64,000 nucleotides of DNA from a bacterium (GCA_021108295.1 JAIORF010000102.1:110027-174026), one strand, 5' to 3'. Counted from the stretch's first letter, positions 43,359 through 54,616 are shown. Notes: generated from the letters alone by a model not told the origin. Made by a program: numbers and translations.

Positions 43359-44330
43359 ATGAATGTTTATGAGAGGATAATAAAAGAGAAGAGTTGTATT
43401 TATGCTTTAGCTCCTATGGAGGATATTACGGATTCTGTATTTAGGCAAATGTTGTGTGATATTGGTAAGCCGGATATGTTCTTTACCGAGTTTATGAGTA
43501 CAGATGGGTATATGTCTAAGGGTAGAGAGAATGTAATGCATAGATTGGAGTTTAGAGATATAGAGAGGCCTATTATAGTGCAATTGTGGGGTAATACTCC
43601 TGAGAATTATGCTAATACAGTGAAGAATATTGTGAATCTTAAGCCTGATGGTATTGATATTAATATTGGCTGTAGTGTTAAGAATGTTTTGAGGAGTGGT
43701 CATTGTTCTGCATTAATTAAAGAGCCAGAGTTAGTTAAGGACATTATTGAGGCTGTGAAGAGTAAGGCTGGTGATATTCCTGTTAGTGTTAAGACTAGGT
43801 TAGGTTACGATTCCATTATCACAGATTCTTGGTTTAATTTTTTACTTGAACAGAATCTTGATCTTATTACAGTGCATGGGAGGATATCGAAGGATGGTTA
43901 CAATATTCCTGCTAATTGGGATGAGATTGGTAAGGTGGTTAAGTTAAGAGATGTGGTTTCCCCTACTACCGTTATATTGGGGAATGGAGATATTTCTAGT
44001 TTAGATATGGCAGATGAGTATGTTTCTAAGTATGGTGTAGATGGCGTAATGGTTGGAAGGGGTATAGTCAACAATCCGTGGTTATTTAGTAGGAGGGGGG
44101 ATATAGACGAGAAGGAGCGTTTAGAGGTGTTAAAGAAGCACTTAGAGCTTTTTAAGGGTACTTGGGAGGGGGTTAAGAGTTATAATAGTCAGAAGAAGTA
44201 TGTAAAGATGTATATTAGTGGTTTTGAAGGGGTTAGTGAGTTAAGACAGAGGTTGATGGAGTGTGAGGAGGTGGATAGGGCTTTGGAGATTGTAGAGGGA
44301 TATATAGAAGAATCTGCTATTTCTCCTTGA
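43359..44330 (+). CDS. dus: tRNA-dihydrouridine synthase
   Basis: LAPMEDITDSVFRQM, FMN-binding TIM barrel motifs, catalytic Cys in NIGCS. Confidence 0.85.
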   Translation: MNVYERIIKEKSCIYALAPMEDITDSVFRQMLCDIGKPDMFFTEFMSTDGYMSKGRENVMHRLEFRDIERPIIVQLWGNTPENYANTVKNIVNLKPDGIDINIGCSVKNVLRSGHCSALIKEPELVKDIIEAVKSKAGDIPVSVKTRLGYDSIITDSWFNFLLEQNLDLITVHGRISKDGYNIPANWDEIGKVVKLRDVVSPTTVILGNGDISSLDMADEYVSKYGVDGVMVGRGIVNNPWLFSRRGDIDEKERLEVLKKHLELFKGTWEGVKSYNSQKKYVKMYISGFEGVSELRQRLMECEEVDRALEIVEGYIEESAISP

Positions 44331-45198
44331 GTTTCAGTTTGGTGAACTTATCTTTGGTGTCTGTTCTCTTCTCTATGGTCTGTCCTGTGTATTTTGGTAG
44401 TGTGAATGTAAAGGTAGTACCCTCCCCTAGTTTGCTATCTACATGTATCTTCCCTCCCATTTTCTCTATTAGATTGAATGTGACATAGAGGCCCAGTCCT
44501 GTTCCTTCTGGTTTTACAATGTTAAAGTCCTCACAGTTTTTTGATTCTGTATAGTTACCTACTCTAAAGAACTTGGTTCCTAGAGCTGATACGTTTTCTT
44601 TGCTCATACCTCTTCCTGTGTCTGTTATGGATATTTGAATGAAATCATTCTTTTCTTCTGTTTTTATTGTTACATTTCCTTGGTGTGTATATTTAATTGC
44701 GTTGTCTATTAGGTTATTAAGTATTTCTACAACTCTGGCGTGATCAGCGTATATGTATGTGGAGTTTGGAGAGAGTTTTGTTATTAGTTGTAGTTTTTTG
44801 TGTTTTGCTTTTGCTTCGTGTGTATGTAAGGCCATCTCTATTTGTTGTAAGAGATTTACTTTCTCATAGTTCAGTTCGATTTTGTCTCCTTCTAGTTTAG
44901 CGCTACTGAGTAGTGTATTAATGAGTTTTATTTCTGTTTCGACTGCGTCTTTAATACGTGCGAGATATTTAGCGGAGTTCTTATTGTTTTTTGTAGAGGA
45001 GTTGCAGAGAAGGTCTAGGTTTAGTTTTATTATAGACATTGGGGTTCTTAGTTCATGTCCCATGATATCTATCATATCTCTTTCTTTCTGCCTTTCTTTT
45101 TCGAGTTTGTTAAGTTGTTGTTCAAGTTTGTAAATTTGTGTAGAGATTTGTTGTTTGGTCATACTTTTATTAATAAACTTATTCTCTATTATATACAA
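44317..45198 (-). CDS. Cytoplasmic sensor histidine kinase (HisKA + HATPase_c)
   Basis: H-box MGHELRTPM, N-box NLIDNAIKYT, G-boxes DTGRGM and GTGLGL; coiled-coil N-terminus, no TM. Confidence 0.8.
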   Translation of the reverse strand: MYIIENKFINKSMTKQQISTQIYKLEQQLNKLEKERQKERDMIDIMGHELRTPMSIIKLNLDLLCNSSTKNNKNSAKYLARIKDAVETEIKLINTLLSSAKLEGDKIELNYEKVNLLQQIEMALHTHEAKAKHKKLQLITKLSPNSTYIYADHARVVEILNNLIDNAIKYTHQGNVTIKTEEKNDFIQISITDTGRGMSKENVSALGTKFFRVGNYTESKNCEDFNIVKPEGTGLGLYVTFNLIEKMGGKIHVDSKLGEGTTFTFTLPKYTGQTIEKRTDTKDKFTKLKLKEK

Positions 45199-45330: not shown

Positions 45331-46581
45331 ATGAAAATTGCCAAGATATTTGCTCAGGAGGTTTTAGACTCAAGAGGTAATCCTACTGTTGAGTGTAGTG
45401 TTGTATTGGAGAATGATATTAAAGCATCTGCCATAGTGCCTAGTGGTGCTTCTACGGGTACATATGAGGCTGTGGAGTTAAGGGATGGGGATATGGATAG
45501 ATACTTAGGTAAGGGTGTTCTTAAAGCTATTGAGAATGTAAATACAAAGATAGCAGAGGTTGTAGTTGGTATGGATGTAGAGGATCAGAGGGAGATAGAT
45601 CAAGCTATGATAGCTTTGGATGGGAGTAGTGATAAGTCTAATCTTGGTGCTAATGCAATTCTTTCTGTATCTATGGCTTGTGTGAGGGCTGCTTCCCTAT
45701 CTCAAGGTATACCAATGTATGAGTATGTAGCTACTTTGTTTGGTAATAGTACAGATGAGTATGAGATGCCAGTACCAATGATTAATGTTTTAAATGGTGG
45801 TAGGCATGCTAATGGTGCTTCTGATATTCAGGAGTATATGTTTATGCCAGTTGGTGCATCTAATATTGAGGAGGCTGTAAGGTGGGGTTCTGAGTGTTTC
45901 CATCACTTGGGTAATATTTTAAAGGAGATGGATTTTAGTACTACAGTTGGTGATGAGGGTGGTTATGCTCCTTCTTTGGGTAGTAATGAGAAGCCTTTGG
46001 AGTTAATGGTTCAGGCTATTAAGAAGGCTAATCTTAAAGCTGGTGAGGATATGTGTATTGGTATTGATGCTGCGGCTAATGAGTTTTTTGAGGAGGGTAA
46101 GTATGAGCTTAAGGCAGATAGTATGAGTTTGAGTAGTGAGGAGTTGTGTAGTATGTATATGGAGTGGGTAGAGAGGTATCCTTTAATTTTGATAGAGGAT
46201 GGTTTTGGAGAGGATGACTGGGATGGTTTTGTACTTTTAGAGAAGAGGTTGGGAGAGAGGATTATGAATGTGGGTGATGATTTGTATGTGACTAGTATTG
46301 AGAGATTAGAGAGGGGTATTAAGGAAGAGGCTACTAATTCCATTCTTATTAAGCTTAATCAGATAGGGAGTGTTACTGAGACAATAGAGGTGATGAAGAG
46401 GGCTAGTGAGGTTGGTATGAAGTGTATGGTTTCTCATAGGTCTGGGGAAACAGAGGATACTTTTCTTGCTGATTTTGTAGTTGGTGCTGGTACAGGTTTT
46501 ATTAAAACAGGTTCTATGAGTAGGAGTGAGAGGGTTGGGAAGTATAATAGGTTGATGAGGATAGAGAGGGAGTTAGGTTAG
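45331..46581 (+). CDS. eno: Enolase
   Basis: MKIAKIFAQEVLDSRGNPTVE... and the enolase signature region. Confidence 0.95.
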   Translation: MKIAKIFAQEVLDSRGNPTVECSVVLENDIKASAIVPSGASTGTYEAVELRDGDMDRYLGKGVLKAIENVNTKIAEVVVGMDVEDQREIDQAMIALDGSSDKSNLGANAILSVSMACVRAASLSQGIPMYEYVATLFGNSTDEYEMPVPMINVLNGGRHANGASDIQEYMFMPVGASNIEEAVRWGSECFHHLGNILKEMDFSTTVGDEGGYAPSLGSNEKPLELMVQAIKKANLKAGEDMCIGIDAAANEFFEEGKYELKADSMSLSSEELCSMYMEWVERYPLILIEDGFGEDDWDGFVLLEKRLGERIMNVGDDLYVTSIERLERGIKEEATNSILIKLNQIGSVTETIEVMKRASEVGMKCMVSHRSGETEDTFLADFVVGAGTGFIKTGSMSRSERVGKYNRLMRIERELG

Positions 46582-47778
46582 GTCAATTTTGTCCCTAGCA
46601 GAAGTTGTTAAAGAATTATAAGTTTCTGGGAAGTTGTTTTGTAGATATACGAGGAATTGGTATGTAGTAGTTATTAGTGTGACGATGTCTCTTTCTACAG
46701 CTTTTGTCATAGGAATCTCTGAGGTTAGTTCTGCTTTGTTAGTCATGTAAGATATCTTTGCTAAGTAAGTAATTGCAATATTAGTCATTCTGTCAAAGGT
46801 TAGTTGAAAGAGTTTTTGTGTACCGAGTTCTAGTTGCTGACTCATAAAGTCTTCGCCGAAGAATCCTATGTGTTGTTGCTCAGCCAAAAGGTTTTGAACC
46901 CTTTTCTTCATTATATCTGTTGTAGCATTAGTTAATATGGAATGTGCAGCTTCTCGAACTTGTTCGTTTTGGGAGAGGTTAAGTAGTAAGAGGGCTTGTG
47001 AGTAAAAGAATATCTTGTCGTCTACCATTTGTTGAACTAGTGGGTTGAGCCCTTCGTGGAAGCGAACAGCATTAGATAATGAGGAGGGGCTTACTTGCAT
47101 ACGTTCGGCAAAGTCAGCTTGGGTTGCATCAGGATTGTTTTCAATGAACATTTGCCATAGATTATAGAAGACAGTCGCTTTTTCTGTCGAAGTCATTGGG
47201 ATATGGAGATTTTCATCCATTTTTATTCTTAGTTGTTGTTCAGGAGTCATTTCGTAAAGAAAGAGTTTAATAAGGATGGGTGCTTGCCAATTTGAAATAT
47301 GTGCGATACCTCTTCTTCTATGATCTCCAGCTTGTACTCTTATTTTTCCATTTGGTCCAAGGTCAGCAATACATGGGTTGAGTTGTTCGTTAGTAATTAT
47401 ATTCTCTCCTAGTTCAATGGCGTGGTCCATATTAAGTGGTCTAATATTGTTTGTTGGGAGGGTTTGGTTTACGGGTAGGGATATGATTACCCAATCTTGA
47501 TCTTCCATGGTACCAATTATTTCTATTTGCTCTTCTTGAAGGAGTTCTTCGTATGTTAATACGGTATTTGGAGGGGTTTCTGTAAGAATTCTAAAATTCT
47601 CTATTGTTAATTGTTTCAGTACTAATAAGTCTCCTGTTTGTGTAATTTCTCTCAGATTTCTTATATTGATGTCTGTAGTGAGGTCAGGGTGATGAACTGT
47701 TACAACCCTTTGTATTCTTTCGCTCTTGTTCTGATTCTTCATAAGAGCAATGATAAACGAATAGAAGCCTATTGGCAA
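46573..47778 (-). CDS. ParB/Spo0J-like protein (ParB N-terminal domain + HTH), orphan with no adjacent parA
   Basis: GKIRVQAGDHRRRGIAH resembles the ParB GERRxRA box; HTH TQADFAERMQVSPSSLSNAVRF; ~100-aa N-terminal extension. Confidence 0.45.
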   Translation of the reverse strand: MPIGFYSFIIALMKNQNKSERIQRVVTVHHPDLTTDINIRNLREITQTGDLLVLKQLTIENFRILTETPPNTVLTYEELLQEEQIEIIGTMEDQDWVIISLPVNQTLPTNNIRPLNMDHAIELGENIITNEQLNPCIADLGPNGKIRVQAGDHRRRGIAHISNWQAPILIKLFLYEMTPEQQLRIKMDENLHIPMTSTEKATVFYNLWQMFIENNPDATQADFAERMQVSPSSLSNAVRFHEGLNPLVQQMVDDKIFFYSQALLLLNLSQNEQVREAAHSILTNATTDIMKKRVQNLLAEQQHIGFFGEDFMSQQLELGTQKLFQLTFDRMTNIAITYLAKISYMTNKAELTSEIPMTKAVERDIVTLITTTYQFLVYLQNNFPETYNSLTTSARDKIDLT

Positions 47779-47781
47779 GTA

Positions 47782-48210
47782 CTATAAGGCTAATCTTTTG
47801 AGGAGTTTTGTATCACCGTAGTGATGATTGTCGTTCTCCTCCCCTTCTTTCTTATACAATATGACTTCTGCTTGTGGTCTTATATCTTGTATTAAAACTT
47901 TTAATTCTTCATATCCAATTTGTGGATCATGGGGTTTTTGTATAAAGGTTATATCTATATCTAATATCTCCTCCTCTATCGCTTTAAGTGCTACTATAAG
48001 TTCCTATGCTTTTAGCAATAACAATGTATTCTTCTTTTGGTAAGTCTCATAATTTCTGTAGTTCTACATCAAAGGATATTTCTTCTTCTGTATCCCAATG
48101 GTTGTAGTGTATTACTTCTTTAGGGAGATCAAATTCATTAGAGAGATTATTTATCCAATCTTTATTTGATATTGCGTTTCCAGGAAGGAAGAGGTATGTC
48201 ATAGATGATT
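47782..48210 (-). pseudogene. Candidate disrupted gene (two collinear ORF fragments separated by a stop and a frame change)
   Basis: Minus-strand fragments MTYLFLPGNAISNKDW...ELQKL-stop and ELIVALKAIEEEILDID...KLLKRLAL-stop lie in different frames with no ATG for the second. Confidence 0.3.
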
Positions 48211-48284
48211 ATATGGTATTTGTAGTTAAGAGTTCAATATTTGAAGAATCTGGAAGAATTTGCAGAAGCAAGGTATAATAAAAC

Positions 48285-48404
48285 ATGATGAATAGTAGAA
48301 AGAAAATAAAAATCACAAGAAAACAAAAAAGAAATGTAGATAAAGCCTTCAAAAGGGCTATGAAGCAGTATAAACCTGCTCTTATTAAACTCGGTAATGC
48401 CTAA
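48285..48404 (+). CDS. Small basic ORF overlapping the Doc start (candidate antitoxin or regulator)
   Basis: 39 aa MMNSRKKIKITRKQKRNVDKAFKRAMKQYKPALIKLGNA. Its stop overlaps the doc ATG by 8 nt (ATGCCTAA), an arrangement typical of antitoxin-toxin pairs. Confidence 0.3.
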   Translation: MMNSRKKIKITRKQKRNVDKAFKRAMKQYKPALIKLGNA

Positions 48405-48831
48405 AGATTTAGTAAGACGAATTACTCTTGAAGAAGTCGAATATCTTTGTTTTCAATTAGTTGATGAAGTTTTTCCAGATTCAGAACCAATACCAGTATT
48501 TGAGACAAGATTTGAAGGGGTTTTAGAAAGTTCAATTACCCAACCATTTCAGCAAATAGCAGGAAAGGATTTATATCCATCATTCGTGCAAAAATCATCG
48601 AGCCTCTTTTATCTGTGTATAAAGAACCATCCGTTTGAGAATGGTAATAAAAGAGTTGCTGTTCTTGTTCTGTTGATCTTTTTGATTAATAATAATAAAT
48701 GGTTAGAATGTACAAATACGGAATTGTACGAATTGGCTGTTTATATAGCAAAAAGCAAGACACAGGAAATGCAAAGGATTCTTGCTTATATTAAAATCTT
48801 TCTATTAAATCACATTAAAGATGAAAATTAA
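48397..48831 (+). CDS. doc: Doc (death-on-curing) / Fic-family toxin-like protein
   Basis: HPFENGNKRVA matches the Doc variant of the Fic motif HxFx(D/N)(A/G)NKR. Confidence 0.75.
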   Translation: MPKDLVRRITLEEVEYLCFQLVDEVFPDSEPIPVFETRFEGVLESSITQPFQQIAGKDLYPSFVQKSSSLFYLCIKNHPFENGNKRVAVLVLLIFLINNNKWLECTNTELYELAVYIAKSKTQEMQRILAYIKIFLLNHIKDEN

Positions 48832-49579
48832 TAACAAAGAAGTTTTTAAAAATATTCAAGCTTATCTCAATCTAGATATCTATGGTAAAAAAGTTGTATG
48901 TCCCTACTCTATCAATTTTGTTGAAAATGAATTTCTAGGATTAATGAGAATGGTAGGAATAGAGGAGGAAAAGATCAAGGAAGTTCATGAGTTATACAAA
49001 AGCAATGAGGCTATATATGGTTGGTATAGGGGTAAGGGAACCGCTAAGGAGATATCTTCTGCTACAAAGGAGATAGCAAAGAAGAGAAACTTTAATTTAG
49101 AGTCTTCATCACCAGAAGGTATTGTTGAATTTATGAGATTAGTAGATTTAGGTATTGATTGTAGTGGGTATGTTTTTAATGTTTTGTTAGAAAGTGTTGA
49201 GGAGAAGGATGTGTTTTTAAAATCTTTGAACTGGTTAGATGAGAAGATGATTGTTTCTAGAGCTAGTGTTGATATTTTTTGTGGTAGGGCTTCAGAGGTT
49301 GTAAATATTAATGATCTAAAGAGTTTAGATTTGATGATAATTAAGTCTAGGTATACTGGGGAGAATAGTCATATAGCGATATTAATTGAGAATGATGGGA
49401 AGATGTATATATCTCAATCTTCTGTATCTACAATACCTAATGGTGTTAGGTTAGATAGTTTTGAGGTAAGGGATAATAAGCCTGTATTTGGTTTTGAGTA
49501 TGAGTTGGGTACGTCTATACAAGACATGTGTGAGATGGGGTTAGTAGAGTTTAGGAGATTGAAGTATATGTTAGTTTAG
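48821..49579 (+). CDS. NlpC/P60-like papain-fold cysteine peptidase (no signal peptide)
   Basis: GIDCSGYVFNV (catalytic Cys motif DCSGfV) and downstream SHIAILI (catalytic His); overlaps the doc stop by 11 nt. Confidence 0.5.
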   Translation: MKINNKEVFKNIQAYLNLDIYGKKVVCPYSINFVENEFLGLMRMVGIEEEKIKEVHELYKSNEAIYGWYRGKGTAKEISSATKEIAKKRNFNLESSSPEGIVEFMRLVDLGIDCSGYVFNVLLESVEEKDVFLKSLNWLDEKMIVSRASVDIFCGRASEVVNINDLKSLDLMIIKSRYTGENSHIAILIENDGKMYISQSSVSTIPNGVRLDSFEVRDNKPVFGFEYELGTSIQDMCEMGLVEFRRLKYMLV

Positions 49580-49619
49580 GGTATAAAATAGTAGTAGTTT
49601 AATTGTTATTAAAGGTAGA

Positions 49620-50114
49620 ATGGCAAAACCAACTAAGTATGCTCCCCATATTTGTACAGTAGTCACTATATTAGCTGTTATAGGGATTGTGATAGGTCTT
49701 TTAACTCATGAGACTCTTGTCATAGTTATTCTTCTTTTACCTGCGGCAATCTATGAGGTGTATAGGACAGAGGGAAAGTCTACTAAGGCATCTTCATATC
49801 TTTTGTTAGGGGTGTTAATAGCTGAGATCTTACTTCTTTTGTTTAAGATAGATATTAATCTTGCTGATTATTTTGGTGTAGATTCGAAAGATATAGGTGG
49901 GTATGTTGTTCCATTGGGAGATATAAAGATAGTGGGATCATCTCTTATGGCAATTCTTTCAGTAATTCTTTTCTTAAAGACTCATGGTAAATATACTAAG
50001 TGGTTGGCAGTAACAATTTTTATTACTTCTTTTGGAATAATATATTCTATAGATCCAGATGTTTTTAGAGAGTTGTTTAAGTATGCAGTAGAGCAAGGAG
50101 TAGATAAGATTTAG
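49620..50114 (+). CDS. Hypothetical 4-TM membrane protein
   Basis: 164 aa with four hydrophobic helices. Confidence 0.45.
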   Translation: MAKPTKYAPHICTVVTILAVIGIVIGLLTHETLVIVILLLPAAIYEVYRTEGKSTKASSYLLLGVLIAEILLLLFKIDINLADYFGVDSKDIGGYVVPLGDIKIVGSSLMAILSVILFLKTHGKYTKWLAVTIFITSFGIIYSIDPDVFRELFKYAVEQGVDKI

Positions 50115-50132
50115 TTGTGTGTAAATAGTCTT

Positions 50133-50582
50133 CTATTTATATTGTTCTGATGTTAAATATCCCTTAAGAACAGAGATGTCGTCCTCTAGGATATGAATAA
50201 ACATATGCTTTATGTTACAGTTTTTCTTATATATTAAGTCCCCCACTTTGTATATGCTCCAATTACAAAAAGATGTCGTATATTTATGATTTATATCAAT
50301 ACTTTCATAACCGTTTATAGGAAAATATAAGGGGAAGTTTTCTATACCATCTTTCTCAATATGTCCTTTGTTAAATCTATTAACCCCCTTTGTTTCAAAT
50401 ACTGATTTCTTGTTTGCTTTAGCAATACCTAAGATCAAGTCATAATTGCCTGTTTCTATCTTCTTTTTAAAAATATGTATGTCCTTCTTAAAATTCTTAA
50501 ATACAAAGATCTCTTTAGATAATGACTTTAATTCTTCTTGCCAAGGAAAAGTCCTGAAGGTATAGATTAAGATGTTCTTCAT
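50133..50582 (-). CDS. Pyroglutamyl-peptidase I (C15)-like protein, short
   Basis: ILIYTFRTFPW (VLVTGFEPF-like), VFETKGVN (catalytic Glu region), SFCNWSIY (GxxCN catalytic Cys), HMFIHI (catalytic His). Confidence 0.45.
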   Translation of the reverse strand: MKNILIYTFRTFPWQEELKSLSKEIFVFKNFKKDIHIFKKKIETGNYDLILGIAKANKKSVFETKGVNRFNKGHIEKDGIENFPLYFPINGYESIDINHKYTTSFCNWSIYKVGDLIYKKNCNIKHMFIHILEDDISVLKGYLTSEQYK

Positions 50583-50656
50583 AATCTAAGTATATATGAA
50601 ATTGACGGAATGGTGGATGATCTTATTAAGATATGGAGCAAAAAGTTTGTTGAAGA

Positions 50657-51634
50657 TTAGCCCTTCCAAGATTTAAATTCTCTCCCTATCCTTTTCATAC
50701 TATAAAACTTCCCTTTATTATCAGTAGGCTTCTTCAATATCCCCTTGCATACCGATTCTATTGGACAATTTGTGTTCTTCTCTCCATTACCCTTACTACA
50801 ACCTTGGCTACCAATTAGCCATAAAGATTCAGAGATTTCTTTCATATTCCAACCAAATTCCCTGCTTAATTCCTGAAATAAAGGAAGGAGAATCTTATAT
50901 GATAAATTGTGGGAGTGGATTTCATCTCCTATCTCTACAATTCCTGTCTGAATGGCAATTCTTGATAATTGGAAATCTATTGGAAGGCCAAAATCATTTA
51001 ACCCTTCTAAATCATAGAGATTATATCTACCAACCCATTGGAGATATAATGCTGCAAGTTTTGGTCCTAATCTATGGAATTCTTTCTGAGCTCTTTTTGC
51101 TCTTGGTGCTACATACAATGCTTTCCATACCTCTTCTGCATTATTATTATGTTTTATAAAGAAGTTTCTTATATCGCCATCATAATTTCGTGTGAGTATT
51201 GAACAGTTGTGATACCAGCTGTTTAAGCTGTTTTTCTGGTATCCTAAGGGTCTTAAATATTCTAGACAAGCTTCGAGGGTGTCGTCTTCTCCATTTCTTA
51301 GAACTTCTTCAGGAGAGAATATCCAAGAATGGCTTTCGAAGAGATAAGAATTCTTAAGAAGTCTATCAAAGAAGACAGAGGTTCTTGTGCTGTATATTGT
51401 TGTAGAGAGTAGTAGTAGACTGTTCAGTAAATATTTGTCATTTACGTCTTTTTCTATTAGAAAGTTTATGTAACTTTCTTCTGGCTGATTTTTGTCTTTG
51501 AAGAATTTACTTTCGGGATTGTTATATTCGGCGAGTGCAAGTTGAATAACTTCTATTGCTCTCTCTTCGTTCACGATACAATTAAGTTCGTTGTTGATAG
51601 GTTCTTTTTCAGACATTACACTAGGATTCGACAT
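50657..51634 (-). CDS. HhH-GPD superfamily DNA glycosylase-like protein
   Basis: HhH element HRLGPKLAALYLQWVG followed by an LPIDFQLSRIAIQTGIV Asp loop; C-terminal Cys cluster CSKGNGEKNTNCPIESVC (3 Cys). Confidence 0.4.
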   Translation of the reverse strand: MSNPSVMSEKEPINNELNCIVNEERAIEVIQLALAEYNNPESKFFKDKNQPEESYINFLIEKDVNDKYLLNSLLLLSTTIYSTRTSVFFDRLLKNSYLFESHSWIFSPEEVLRNGEDDTLEACLEYLRPLGYQKNSLNSWYHNCSILTRNYDGDIRNFFIKHNNNAEEVWKALYVAPRAKRAQKEFHRLGPKLAALYLQWVGRYNLYDLEGLNDFGLPIDFQLSRIAIQTGIVEIGDEIHSHNLSYKILLPLFQELSREFGWNMKEISESLWLIGSQGCSKGNGEKNTNCPIESVCKGILKKPTDNKGKFYSMKRIGREFKSWKG

Positions 51635-51796
51635 CTTGTAGTATATGACTATATTGTGTGAATGGCAATATATGGAGAGAATGGTGGGCGATATTAAATA
51701 GCATGGAACTTAAGAAGAGAATGACATTTCTCTTAGATTTCTAAATGTCTTTTAGATTTGTTGAATTTGTAGTTGGGAATACACTACTAGTTTTGC

Positions 51797-52795
51797 TTGA
51801 CAGATCTCATTGTTATAGGTTATTATCCCTCCATGGCTGAATCTGAGACTAAATCTGAAGAAGGATTATCAAGGGGAGAATTTCTCAAAGTACTAGGTGT
51901 AACAGCTACTGCTGCACTCGTAGGTGGCTGCGTAGCCGATATGGACTTACCTTCTACTTCTACAACTCCATCACCTTTTCCTCCAACCGAGACACCGCCA
52001 CCAGTGACTCCAACCCCCACACCAACTGAAACATTAGCTCCATCTGAAACGCCTGATGTATGGGAATTGTCACTTTCTCAGCGGATTGAATTAATGAAAG
52101 ACCTCGAGTTTTATTCAGATTTACACGATGGAAATACTAGGAAAATTCTTACGTTTCAATTGGATAAGGAGGAGTACCTAGGACACCCTACTAGAATACT
52201 TGATCATGACAACTGCTGTGGAGAGGCAACTTTAGCTACTATTATAAAGATGTGCGAGTATTTAAATACGTCTAAAGTTCCAGATATTACCATTGCTGAT
52301 ATTCATATCGCACTTGAAGGGAAGACCTTCACAGATATAAGGGGTTACACTGCCAAATATATTGTCTGGAATGATGCAATGTATTTTGTTGGACTTCCCG
52401 ATGCTCTGAAGACCTTAGCCCCAGAGCTCATTTCGAAAACTGAGTTTTTGACGCCCGACTATGGTGCCAGATATCCAAGAATTGTTCCCCAGTCGGAATG
52501 GCCTGATATGCTTTCAAGAGCACAAGCTCTTTGTGAAGATGGTGGATTTGTAATAATTGGTGGTATGAAATATCGTGCTGGCCATATTATGCTTGGCACG
52601 GATATTAAAGAAGACGGTACGGCCATAATAGTGGAGCCACGTTGTAGAATAGCCCAAAGAGTCCTTCTTAAAGACTATTTTGAAGAGTGGGTGGACTATA
52701 GGGCTGCATCCCTGGGGAGACAACCTGCGCTTCTACATATGTTTGGTATTACCCCGAAACTGAATGTTCCAGTTAAGCCTGGATTACAAAGATAA
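51797..52795 (+). CDS. Lipoprotein with PT-rich linker and C39-like cysteine peptidase domain
   Basis: Twin-Arg-like SRGEFLK + LVGGC lipobox, PT linker, DHDNCCGEATLATII (C39-like DCGxAxL) and RAGHIML. Confidence 0.45.
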   Translation: MTDLIVIGYYPSMAESETKSEEGLSRGEFLKVLGVTATAALVGGCVADMDLPSTSTTPSPFPPTETPPPVTPTPTPTETLAPSETPDVWELSLSQRIELMKDLEFYSDLHDGNTRKILTFQLDKEEYLGHPTRILDHDNCCGEATLATIIKMCEYLNTSKVPDITIADIHIALEGKTFTDIRGYTAKYIVWNDAMYFVGLPDALKTLAPELISKTEFLTPDYGARYPRIVPQSEWPDMLSRAQALCEDGGFVIIGGMKYRAGHIMLGTDIKEDGTAIIVEPRCRIAQRVLLKDYFEEWVDYRAASLGRQPALLHMFGITPKLNVPVKPGLQR

Positions 52796-52897
52796 GTTCT
52801 ATCTTCAAGTATTTCAGTCTTTGATAATCCTTTGTAGCGCTATCTGTGGAGGAGGACGTAGTCAGTGTTAGCCTAATTTCCGCTTAAGTTTTCAAAA

Positions 52898-52974
52898 TGG
52901 TGGGCGATACGGGACTCGAACCTGTGACCTCCACAATGTCAATGTGACGCTCTAACCAGCTGAGCTAATCGCCC
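52898..52974 (-). tRNA. tRNA-Val (anticodon GAC), CCA encoded
   Basis: Reverse complement folds as a cloverleaf: acceptor GGGCGAU/AUCGCCC, D-arm GCUC-AGCUGGUUA-GAGC, anticodon loop UUGACAU, T-loop UUCGAGU, discriminator A + CCA. Confidence 0.85.
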
Positions 52975-52988
52975 CTAAACAAAATATT

Positions 52989-53567
52989 CTATCTCTTTCT
53001 AATAACCTTGTCTATTAAACCATAAGCCTTAGCCTCTTTTGCAGTAAAATACTTATCCCTATCAGCATCCCTCTCTATCTGAGCAACACTCTGCCCTGTA
53101 CCCTTCGCTAAAATCTTGTTTAATGCACCCTTAAGCTTAAGAATCTCCTCTGCCTCTATCGCTATATCAGAAGCCTGCCCCTCTACGCCACCCAAAGGCT
53201 GATGAATGAGGATCTTACTATTCGGAAGTGAAAAACGCTTACCCTTTGTACCAGATGTAAGAAGTATGGAGGCCATAGAAGCAGCCATACCAACTGCGAT
53301 AGTGGAAATATCACACTTAATGTAACTCATGGTATCCAAAATTGCTAAACCAGCAGAAATCTTACCCCCAGGAGAATTAATAAACATTTGGATATCCTCC
53401 TTCTCATTCTCCTTCTCTAAAAACAGTAACTGAGCTACTACAATATTAGCTAACTCATCACTGATAGTACCAGTTACGAATATAATTCTGTCTTTTAGTA
53501 ATCTAGAATAAAGATCGTAAGCTCTATCTCCATCTCTCTCCTTTTCAATTACTGTAGGTATTAACAT
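52989..53567 (-). CDS. clpP: ATP-dependent Clp protease proteolytic subunit
   Basis: [25 protein letters not shown]; catalytic Ser in GMAASMAS, His and Asp present. Confidence 0.95.
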
Positions 53568-53569
53568 TC

Positions 53570-54616
53570 CTATTTCTCCTCCTTATTTAAAAACTCCTTA
53601 CCAAGAGTATGAAGTATAAACTTCTTGAAAGCCTTCTCCTTCCTCTCTACCCTCTGTACATACTCCAACCACTGCTCATTATCAAATATAGATTGATCAA
53701 CATCAGGTTGAGTCTTCTTAATTACCTCTATTTTCTTATCAATATCCTCCTTCTCTACCTTAATATCTTTAGTATCTGCATACAAAGTTAGAAATACATC
53801 ACTTTCTAGAGCCTCTTTTGCATCCTTAAGCCATGCTTCCCTCATCTGCTCCATATCGATACCACTCTGTTTGATAAAATCCTCTACCTTGACACCCCTC
53901 TGTTGCATATCCTGTTCAAAAGCTTTCTCCCTTTCTTTTGCTTCAAACTCTATAGCAGCTTGTGGGACTTTGATATCAGAAAGATTAATAGCTTGCTTAA
54001 GTGCATTCTCCTGATAGCTCTGCATCAACATCTGCTCTTTTTGTGTAGTAAGAATTCTCTCTATTTCTTTTTTAAGATCCTCTAAACTCTTTATATCCTT
54101 TAACTCTAATTTCTTAGCAATCTCCTTTGCCCAACTATCACAAATACTCTTAGCCTTTGTCTCATTGTTGGTCTTAAGCTCTTTAATAGCTTGATCAACA
54201 TCCTTTTGCTCTATCTCTACTGTTTCTTTCTCAACCTTAACCTTCTTCATATTACCTAACTTAAACTTAGGCATAATTGTGGTTTCAACCTTGAATTCTA
54301 AATCATCCTTACCATCAAACTTAGGCAATTCTGAATATTTTGGAGGAGCAATTAGCTCTATCTTCTCTTTTTGAATTGCGGTATTGATATACATAGGAGC
54401 AAGTTTCTCAAAAGTATCAAACTGAAGCATAGACTTCATAGAAGGTTCAAGTAGGTCTGTAGGAACTTTCCCTTTTCTAAAACCCTTTACATTACTATCC
54501 TTAGTCTGATCTTTTAGTACTGCGTTGTATGACTTATCAAAACTCTCTCTTGGGACTGATATTGTAAGAACTATTGTATCCTCCCCCTTATCTTCTCTGG
54601 TGTACATATCTGACAT
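53570..54616 (-). CDS. tig: Trigger factor lacking a recognisable FKBP PPIase domain
   Basis: N-terminal ribosome-binding signature GFRKGKVP, helical C-terminal arms; 348 aa; upstream of clpP as usual. Confidence 0.75.

Follow-up and report, generated by a model that had tools for sequence, protein, structure and literature searches.

Cis-mobilizable elements (CIMEs), known from the accretion and mobilization of integrative and conjugative elements (ICEs) in Streptococcus, are att-flanked, carry no recombination genes and can be excised together with a neighbouring complete element, and in archaeal viruses of the SSV type integration splits the integrase gene in two. Genomic islands in tRNA genes (tDNA islands) are marked by an intact tDNA plus a displaced 3' fragment, and an island of the Islander type normally encodes an integrase of its own, in most cases a tyrosine recombinase (PMC4383910). 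The tycheposons of Prochlorococcus, found in streamlined genomes, target the 3' side of particular tRNA genes; new insertions push older ones inward, with partial tRNA copies between them and degenerate remnants deeper in the array (bioRxiv 10.1101/2020.12.28.424599). In mycobacteriophage BPs, which shows integration-dependent immunity, attP lies inside the repressor gene (PMC4557955). Here we analyze a bacterial stretch of 64,000 nucleotides (GCA_021108295.1 JAIORF010000102.1:110027-174026; hereafter the window, with positions counted from its first letter), and within it the variable interval between eno and the tRNA-Val(GAC) gene that lies downstream of clpP, together with a 38-nt repeat, R, in its tRNA-proximal part. 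Close homologues of the trigger factor encoded in the window are named Candidatus Dojkabacteria or candidate division WS6, within the Patescibacteria. Genomes of this candidate phyla radiation (CPR) are tiny, and to our knowledge little has been reported on how such genomes gain genes; our literature search found no description of the tRNA-Val locus or of CPR cassette arrays.

The interval is probably a composite of three parts (Table 1). The segment 51682-52897 would be left over from a site-specific insertion into the tRNA-Val(GAC) gene at its 3' end. The middle part (49555-51681), which encodes a membrane protein, a C15-like protein and an HhH-GPD protein, would have been inherited vertically within the genus. 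The segment beside eno (46582-49554) would be a second hotspot, which gained a ParB/Noc-like gene and an operon made up of a 39-aa open reading frame (ORF), Doc and an NlpC/P60-like gene, and in which an ancestral eno neighbour of a 171-aa family is decaying in the window species. As anchors for synteny we used eno in one genome per species and tig in metagenomes and the protein database. The conserved segments that bracket the interval read ...clpB-dus-HK-eno (HK, histidine kinase) and tRNA-Val-clpP-tig-sortase..., and tRNA-Val(GAC) lies downstream of clpP in all relatives; eno is 90%, 79% and 72% identical in L005, L006 and L007, respectively. The flanks are those of the first-pass annotation, which had placed a block between eno and tig-clpP-tRNA-Val, and the genes that it listed are present, including the ParB-like orphan, Doc and an HhH-GPD-like protein with three Cys. 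The layout is the same on every conspecific contig that spans the block (~8 records from at least six samples), and the two aligned to the window (L126, 16.6 kb; L121, 8.7 kb) are both 100% identical to it. Because the same DNA recurs in several independent assemblies, the block is real and fixed in the species, and the conspecific contigs rule out an assembly artefact as the origin of its layout.

Table 1 Features of the interval between eno and tig, in window positions (LSR, large serine recombinase).
Feature	Position	Strand	Comment
eno	45331-46581	+	416-aa enolase, left conserved flank
ParB/Noc-like orphan gene	46573-47778	-	389-401 aa, ParB N-terminal-like domain plus helix-turn-helix (HTH)
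Species-specific segment	46582-49554		2,973 nt, from junction alignments against L005 and L006
Pseudogene of the 171-aa family	47782-48202	-	two fragments, compared with the intact homologue in L099
39-aa basic ORF	48285-48404	+	candidate antitoxin; stop overlaps Doc start by 8 nt
Doc (Fic-fold) toxin	48397-48831	+	Pfam Fic E 2e-11
NlpC/P60-like protein	48821-49579	+	252 aa, cytoplasmic; overlaps Doc stop by 11 nt
TM164	49620-50114	+	164-aa multi-pass membrane protein, conserved neighbour
C15-like short protein	50133-50582	-	149 aa, partial Peptidase_C15 match
HhH325	50657-51634	-	325-aa glycosylase-like protein, HhH-GPD superfamily by profile and fold
Repeat R	51682-51719	-	38 nt, attR-type junction; tRNA-sense CTCTTCTTAAGTTCCATGCTATTTAATATCGCCCACCA
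Open frame antisense through R	51682-51744	+	WWAILNSMELKKRMTFLLDF, then stop; in frame with the LSR ORF
Cassette body	51694-52897		between tRNA core and R; whole cassette 51682-52897, ~1.2 kb, one gene
Papain-like lipoprotein	51797-52795	+	cassette cargo; 332 aa from TTG, or 320 aa from ATG 51833
tRNA-Val(GAC)	52898-52974	-	ARAGORN; putative integration target, shared core 52898-52909
clpP	52989-53567	-	right conserved flank
tig	53570-54616	-	right conserved flank (clpP plus tig, 52989-54616)

In a repeat scan, AATGGTGGGCGATA stood out as a 14-nt exact direct repeat, with one copy at 51680-51693 and the other at the tRNA 3' end (52896-52909). The chance expectation in the window, for matches with at most two mismatches, is about 0.19. 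The last 12 nt of R (51682-51693) are the 3' end of tRNA-Val. Besides R, the scan of the whole block returned only chance-level short repeats, and an iterated nhmmer model found no further copy in the window better than E ~3. The 12-mer of the tRNA end occurs four times at the locus of the sister species (L005, L091, L095) and three times in L006, always intergenic and in tRNA orientation. Altogether, 13-14 distinct copies of R were found in at least seven genomes with tig identities of 53-100% (the window species, the sister species, L006, L086, L088, L098 and the L111-L115 group; nhmmer E ~2e-10). Their consensus on the tRNA-sense strand is yTnTTTyTAAGTTCCATGCnnnnAAGTAT(CG/AT)CCCACCA, and their orientation is always that of the tRNA, regardless of the strand of the cargo genes. 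Identity among copies is 0.74 against a background of 0.28, and the surrounding intergenic DNA is unalignable. In distant genomes the R copy and the tRNA differ, with TATATCCCACCA in the former and TATCGCCCACCA in the latter, so R is conserved as a site in itself and is more than a duplicated tRNA end.

Comparison with the sister species adds a displacement of flanking sequence. The flank TTTTGAAAA(C/T)TTAAGCGG follows the tRNA in the window and an R copy in the sister species, past three extra cassettes that carry Mrr, HisPhos and YecM; likewise, the sequence after the tRNA in the window (TTTTGAAAACTTAAGCGG...) sits after an R copy there. Judged by these alignments, displacement from the tRNA to R is the classic signature of tRNA-end insertion. 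Two comparisons among relatives, L109 versus L129 and the window versus the sister species, thus show polymorphism with a precise empty site. The window's own cassette, in turn, is also present in the sister species, with a protein 74% identical and the same neighbour, so it is old and pre-dates the split; it is fixed in every conspecific contig found.

An LSR is present in three relatives (L090, L110, L129), and in L090 the 608-aa LSR gene overlaps the tRNA 3' end. Within one species with identical tig, strains differ directly after tRNA-Val: L109 has a short noncoding unit ('empty'), L112-L115 have DUF4238 and a 223-aa gene, L111 has other cassettes, and in L110 a gene for a 596-aa recombinase comes first, with FtsK-like and other genes after it. 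The recombinase element of L129 and L110 is bounded by tRNA-Val and R, and in L129 it extends from directly after the tRNA CCA to an R copy ~12.5 kb away. Past this R, the next 371 nt match, at 100% identity, the stretch that comes after the tRNA in L109; R is therefore the distal junction of the element, with the crossover within CCCACCA(T). In L110 and L129 the recombinase has the domains Resolvase, Recombinase and Zn_ribbon_recom (PHROG integrase, E 2e-99), and the element also encodes FtsK-like, TerS-like and large methyltransferase-like proteins; no PHROG structural protein was matched among ten ORFs scanned in an element of the L129 type. The attP sites reconstructed from L129 and L110 have arms that form an imperfect inverted repeat (19/34 positions, shared block TAAGTTnCAnGC), as would be expected for the LSR class. 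In viral contigs, a first pattern for R gave no hit and a second gave one contig, which carries the same recombinase as L110; a search of viral contigs for further LSR elements turned up only distant, unrelated recombinases. Integration, which had been proposed for the block together with a search for an integrase or att repeats beyond the window, has direct evidence in an att-type repeat at the tRNA and, in relatives, in an LSR element at the same nucleotide; no integrase was detectable in the window itself.

Over its last 9 codons the recombinase ORF is antisense to the final 27 nt of the tRNA, and it closes with ...GWWAIRDSNL before its stop. Read in the frame of the recombinase, the R copies are open in all but one case and encode WW[AD]xLxx[MLI]EL[KR]N..., with a tail of 20-23 codons in 12 of 13 copies, and the other two frames contain scattered stops. 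Shuffled tails reach this length range in ~13% of cases (binomial p ~4e-10, with copies counted as independent though some share descent). On the simplest reading, R would supply an alternative C-terminal tail of the recombinase for the excised form. In the integrated state the recombinase gene lies antisense over the junction, with its last 9 codons supplied by the tRNA gene; in the excised state a tail of 20-23 aa would be read from R instead. By its sequence, the open frame in the window's R is an orphan coding piece for a putative recombinase tail. That the tail frame is kept in recombinase-less cassettes suggests that these are young or still used by passing elements and are not freely decaying. 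We also considered a 13-codon 'micro-ORF' (MELK...) in R as a separate peptide and rejected it, since it fits better as a segment of the in-frame recombinase tail. As a separate observation, the R-arm motif TTTAAGTTCCATG recurs, inverted, 16 nt upstream of the recombinase start (L119, 9969-9985; element as in L110 and L129), where it could be a binding site for self-regulation or a chance match (E 0.01-0.3).

Relatives carry one to four recombinase-less cassettes, each of which has R at its end. From one core to the next, the units are 359-1925 nt long (0.36-1.9 kb) and hold one or two intact genes, with no recombinase debris and with clean junctions at CCA; the downstream flanks of insertions are T-rich and not conserved. 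Cargo includes Mrr endonuclease, alginate lyase, S41 peptidase, DUF4238, SDR and histidine phosphatase, as well as ASCH, HD and metallophosphoesterase enzymes. Promoters of the form TGnTATAAT were seen by eye, and the cassettes appear to carry their own promoters. Degenerate R copies lie deeper in some arrays. A noncoding cassette comes first in L109 and deeper in L111, and a DUF6512+DUF5655 pair lies behind different first cassettes in L088 and L111; these positions point to cassette movement in relatives. The cassettes are most likely att-bounded hitchhikers that a recombinase element brings in, leaves behind or carries out by way of a more distant R, a mobilization in trans that is inferred. 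The noncoding unit itself is ~130 nt long (L109, 12650-12800; L111, 14889-15066; L129, just beyond R; tRNA-sense strand), has its own TGATATAAT-type promoter and looks structured; its copies in L109 and L111 are 88% identical, and no Rfam family was matched. In L097 (4543-5275), a single DUF6512 gene separates tRNA-Val(GAC) from a second, downstream tRNA-Val with the anticodon CAC, which occupies the spot of the R copy in other genomes.

The remainder of the interval has a different history. In the sister species (eno 90% identical) the gene order is eno-UDG-TM164-broken C15-like gene-HhH325-lipoprotein-YecM-HisPhos-Mrr endonuclease-tRNA-Val-clpP-tig, where UDG is uracil-DNA glycosylase. In L006 (eno 79%), eno is followed by 188 nt, TM164 and then unrelated genes. 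In L099 (tig 63%), the stretch from tRNA-Val to eno holds UDG, DUF1653, serine hydrolase, dUTPase and other genes, with an intact 171-aa gene abutting eno, and no TM164 homologue was identified at that locus; more distant relatives have quite different genes in the interval. Taken together with the junction alignments, the synteny in the sister species, L006 and L099 means that the block is neither conserved nor moved as one piece. The suggestion that the interval is accessory and variable is therefore upheld: the sister species lacks 46582-49554, has UDG there (as seen in L005 and L095) and has three additional cassettes, and relatives do not keep the whole block in order, as would be expected of an ancestral core. 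By contrast, the middle part is common to the sister species at 94-97% identity (TM164 94.5% in L005, HhH325 96.5%, and the C15-like gene, which is broken there); TM164 is also 85% identical in L006, where it directly follows eno. The right edge of the species-specific segment falls within the last codons of the NlpC-like gene, of which the last ~9 lie in sister-shared sequence, homology with L005 resuming at 49555.

Two explanations treat the interval as a whole. The first-pass annotation had read it as one integrated or defence island, and one could suppose that the entire 6.2 kb entered at tRNA-Val as a mobile or defence island whose integrase lies outside the window or has been lost: the block is on the 3' side of a tRNA gene, contains a toxin-antitoxin module, a ParB-like gene and peptidase-like genes, and has low GC and the top tetranucleotide deviation at 48-51 kb. 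A single island is contradicted, however, by the sole att-type repeat, which brackets 1.2 kb and not 6.2 kb, by the retention of TM164, the C15-like gene and HhH325 in the sister species and of TM164 beside eno in L006, and by the pseudogene, which is the ancestral eno neighbour. Neither a second R or tRNA fragment near 46.6 kb nor a relative in which eno abuts tRNA-Val was found, and the window yielded no integrase. A PADLOC scan gave Doc-domain candidates only, and because nothing but Doc matches a defence model, the term 'defence island' is not justified for this genome. We therefore consider a single island very unlikely. Conversely, the interval could be ancestral chromosome in which gene loss and rapid divergence in reduced CPR genomes account for the differences, with no site-specific insertion. 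Throughout the family the eno...tRNA-Val neighbourhood is indeed kept as a locus, ongoing loss is indicated by the pseudogene and the truncated histidine kinase, and the layout is fixed within the species; but this reading is at odds with precise insertion polymorphisms at CCA with a duplicated core, with the conservation of R amid unalignable intergenic DNA and with unrelated genes at the same site in different lineages, and we regard it as distinctly unlikely.

How the tRNA-proximal cassettes arose can be decided with less assurance. We propose tentatively, as possible rather than probable, that tRNA-Val(GAC) is the docking site of an LSR-driven cassette system in which self-expressed cassettes ending in R are shuffled, deposited and picked up. 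Cassette and R could instead be what deletion left of a single complete recombinase element as it decayed in place, the R copies of relatives being independent scars. The lack of a recombinase in the window, the age of a cassette common to the sister species and the degenerate R copies deeper in some arrays all fit such a remnant, whereas the uniformly compact cassettes, with their intact genes, clean CCA junctions and absence of recombinase debris, do not; nor do the R tail frame, kept despite sequence divergence, the different array positions of the noncoding cassette in two strains, and the DUF6512+DUF5655 pair behind different first cassettes. On balance we find decay in place doubtful. 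It is also conceivable that R works at the RNA level, as a terminator or a tRNA-like processing signal, and not in recombination, given that it mimics the tRNA 3' end including CCA and that short hairpins lie just upstream of several copies. Yet R follows the orientation of the tRNA and not that of the cargo gene, its fold energies do not stand apart from those of shuffles in most copies, with no consistent folding signal, it lacks the acceptor 5' strand, and it marks the exact end of a 12.5-kb insertion, which makes a role at the RNA level extremely unlikely.

Several points weigh against the composite, insertion-based reading that we prefer. No integrase or recombinase was found among the ORFs of the window by phmmer with XerD, lambda Int and the L090 LSR, or by tblastn with two LSRs, and the window holds a single cassette, so that 'array' applies to relatives only. 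The shared core spans 12-14 nt in the window's clade and no more than 7 nt in other clades. Recombination of attL with attP is not normally catalyzed by LSRs; to insert repeatedly beside an earlier cassette, the enzyme would have to be less demanding about the downstream half-site. Excision, the circular form and the swap of tails are deduced from sequence comparison. At the eno-side hotspot neither repeats nor an integrase nor a donor was found, and the ParB-like gene could alternatively be an old, fast-evolving resident that relatives have lost.

The lipoprotein encoded by the window's cassette has homologues 43-74% identical, in which Cys129 and His251 are invariant. It combines a Tat-like signal and lipobox (by inspection), a Pro/Thr linker and a papain-like folded domain that is predicted with confidence. 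The top Foldseek matches of this domain are the phytochelatin-synthase-like Alr0975 (E 8e-4), SpeB and staphopain, the C39 domain of PCAT1 ranks 14th, and there is no Pfam match. From the predicted fold, the protein is papain-like (cysteine peptidase- or transferase-like) and not specifically C39, so that of the earlier label, a C39-like lipoprotein, the papain-like lipoprotein stands and the family name is too specific. Its signal reads SRGEFLK in the window in place of the twin-arginine SRRDFLK of homologues (51833-52795), and export by the Tat route may be impaired in the window species.

In the middle part, TM164 has four to five hydrophobic segments, counted by eye. The C15-like protein matches Peptidase_C15 (E 0.004) over residues 102-131 only, the FCN...FIHI region with the Cys and His motifs; at 17.7 bits over 30 residues, against cut-offs of 22.7 and 199, it stays short of a full-length match to the pyroglutamyl peptidase family C15, so the resemblance noted earlier is partial and the designation 'C15' goes too far. 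HhH325 belongs to a family of 180 representatives, from 41 of which we built a profile; the profile matches ROS1 (7.7e-5) and endonuclease III (EndoIII; 1e-3), and three family members match Pfam AGOG. Its structural model (predicted local distance difference test, pLDDT, 90) is matched by Foldseek to Qng1/DUF2419, EndoIII, MutY and AGOG, with a probability of 1.0 for EndoIII, MutY and Qng1. D220 and the three cysteines C279, C290 and C296 are invariant. Profile and model both place the protein in the HhH-GPD superfamily, with a putative catalytic Asp. The variable interval of relatives (arrays of L098, L099, L111, L095 and L006) is rich in genes for nucleotide sanitizing and DNA repair, among them UDG, dUTPase, MazG-like, Ham1, several NUDIX, HD and ASCH, and the window's HhH-GPD protein is in keeping with this set.

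Beside eno, the ParB/Noc-like gene lies between eno and the decayed ancestral neighbour, and is absent from L005, L095, L006 and L099. Its product passes the cut-off for HTH_ParB (25 bits; cut-off 22.6), stays under that for TIGR00180 (31.7; cut-off 58.45) and has PHROG ParB-like matches up to E 6e-6. Its best solved relative is Noc (7nfu, E 1e-3), and it has the motif GDHRRRG in place of GERRxRA. Among 5.8 billion proteins it matched only itself, searches of phage and plasmid collections gave no match, and there is no adjacent ParA, the neighbours being eno and the pseudogene. The latter is 44% identical over its full length to the intact gene of L099 (18034-18549), which is convergent with eno, and carries an in-frame TGA for Lys, one frameshift and a 28-aa deletion. 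The two frame-disrupted fragments reported earlier are therefore indeed the product of decay; they are not devoid of an ATG, the first fragment starting with one at 48202. Recoding of TGA (code 25) was considered for the pseudogene and rejected, as the other genes of the window read normally with code 11 and the homologue has Lys.

The operon that follows begins with the 39-aa ORF, which the first-pass gene list had omitted and which is annotated as a gene in L126; it matched no family and has no detectable similarity to Phd or YefM. Doc exceeds the cut-off for TIGR01550 (46.8; cut-off 38.65), matches the PHROG Doc-like toxin (E 3e-22) and has the catalytic motif HPFENGNKR, which fits HxFx(D/N)(A/G)NKR. 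Toxins of the Doc family phosphorylate EF-Tu and are kept in check by a small upstream antitoxin. The 252-aa protein matches NlpC_P60 below threshold (E 0.019), with no phage match and no informative solved relative.

The compositional deviation of the block is only mild: within the 64-kb window, tetranucleotide usage deviates most at 48001-51000 (z 3.6), and gene GC in the 48-51 kb stretch is 0.29-0.335 against a mean of 0.371. This deviant stretch covers both the species-specific Doc and NlpC genes and the conserved TM164 and C15-like genes. A 2.3-kb contig (L125, JGI Ga0255434_11110) fuses window 49384-50801, across a 7-nt overlap, with 49165-48267 in reverse, and is either an assembly chimera or a true inversion variant inside the block. 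Next to eno, the histidine kinase of the window (44317-45198, minus strand) aligns with no more than residues 484-764 of its 768-aa multi-pass sensor counterpart in the sister species, so that the N-terminal sensor part (~480 aa) is absent. On the other side, clpP and tRNA-Val stand 15 nt apart in the window; in relatives (L085, L086, L097, L099, L109-L118) they are separated by 560 nt, by ORFs of 140, 175 or 97+160 aa, or by two genes, so the upstream side of tRNA-Val is variable too.

Taken alone, the window is modest, with one old cassette scar and a second hotspot that holds a decaying gene and a candidate toxin-antitoxin pair. Of greater interest is the wider pattern among relatives. There, the locus would represent a concrete route of gene gain, with a tRNA gene as entry point, a 38-nt site for each insertion, a candidate LSR and differences at the level of strains. 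The cargo of restriction enzymes, secreted hydrolases, and nucleotide-sanitizing and DNA-repair enzymes suggests genes for niche and phage interaction. An att site within the recombinase ORF predicts a C-terminus that integration alters, which could act as a control on direction or stability. If these predictions are correct, the locus would be an integron-like gene-capture platform built on a serine recombinase and a tRNA gene, the protein sequence of the recombinase would report its own integration state, and each R would have to keep its coding piece because it supplies the recombinase tail when used for excision.

Compared with known systems, the window resembles tDNA islands in that an intact tRNA gene bounds the unit on one side and a displaced, directly oriented 3' fragment bounds it on the other, that content varies among relatives and that the fragment begins where T stem and acceptor stem meet, which is among the three known crossover sublocations (PMC4383910). 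It differs in that the unit, 1.2 kb long, holds a single gene and lacks an integrase, that the enzyme of relatives is an LSR and that the core is only 7-14 nt. With tycheposons the locus shares a streamlined genome, a tRNA 3' target, stacked units split by partial tRNA sequence and degenerate copies deeper in the array; it differs in its CPR host, in an LSR whose ORF spans att and in units that are mostly single genes with no recombinase, and neither the window nor the LSR element examined showed any of the tycheposon hallmark genes. CIMEs are likewise att-flanked segments devoid of recombination genes, but the Dojkabacteria cassettes are much smaller, their att carries coding sequence for a recombinase tail, and their mobilization is putative. 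As in integrons, short and mostly single-gene units are stacked at one site, each ending in a recombination site, with apparent proximal entry of new units and an order that differs between strains; unlike in integrons, there is no IntI, attI or attC hairpin (RYYYAAC/GTTRRRY), and R is conserved in sequence. Identity with integrons was rejected, as no tyrosine recombinase was found in the window and R has no RYYYAAC...GTTRRRY motifs. The operon beside eno resembles Phd-Doc modules in a Doc with its catalytic motif and a small upstream ORF overlapping its start, and departs from them in that the 39-aa ORF is not Phd- or YefM-like and a third, NlpC/P60-like gene overlaps the Doc stop. By analogy, BPs is the nearest citable precedent for an attP within a gene: in BPs and SSV, too, the crossover falls in an ORF, so that integration alters the C-terminal end of an element protein, whereas the exchange predicted for the locus is confined to the final ~9 to ~23 codons of a serine recombinase. 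In conclusion, the locus differs from known tRNA islands in the class of its enzyme, in its small recombinase-less units, in its conserved att site and in the position of this site within the recombinase ORF.

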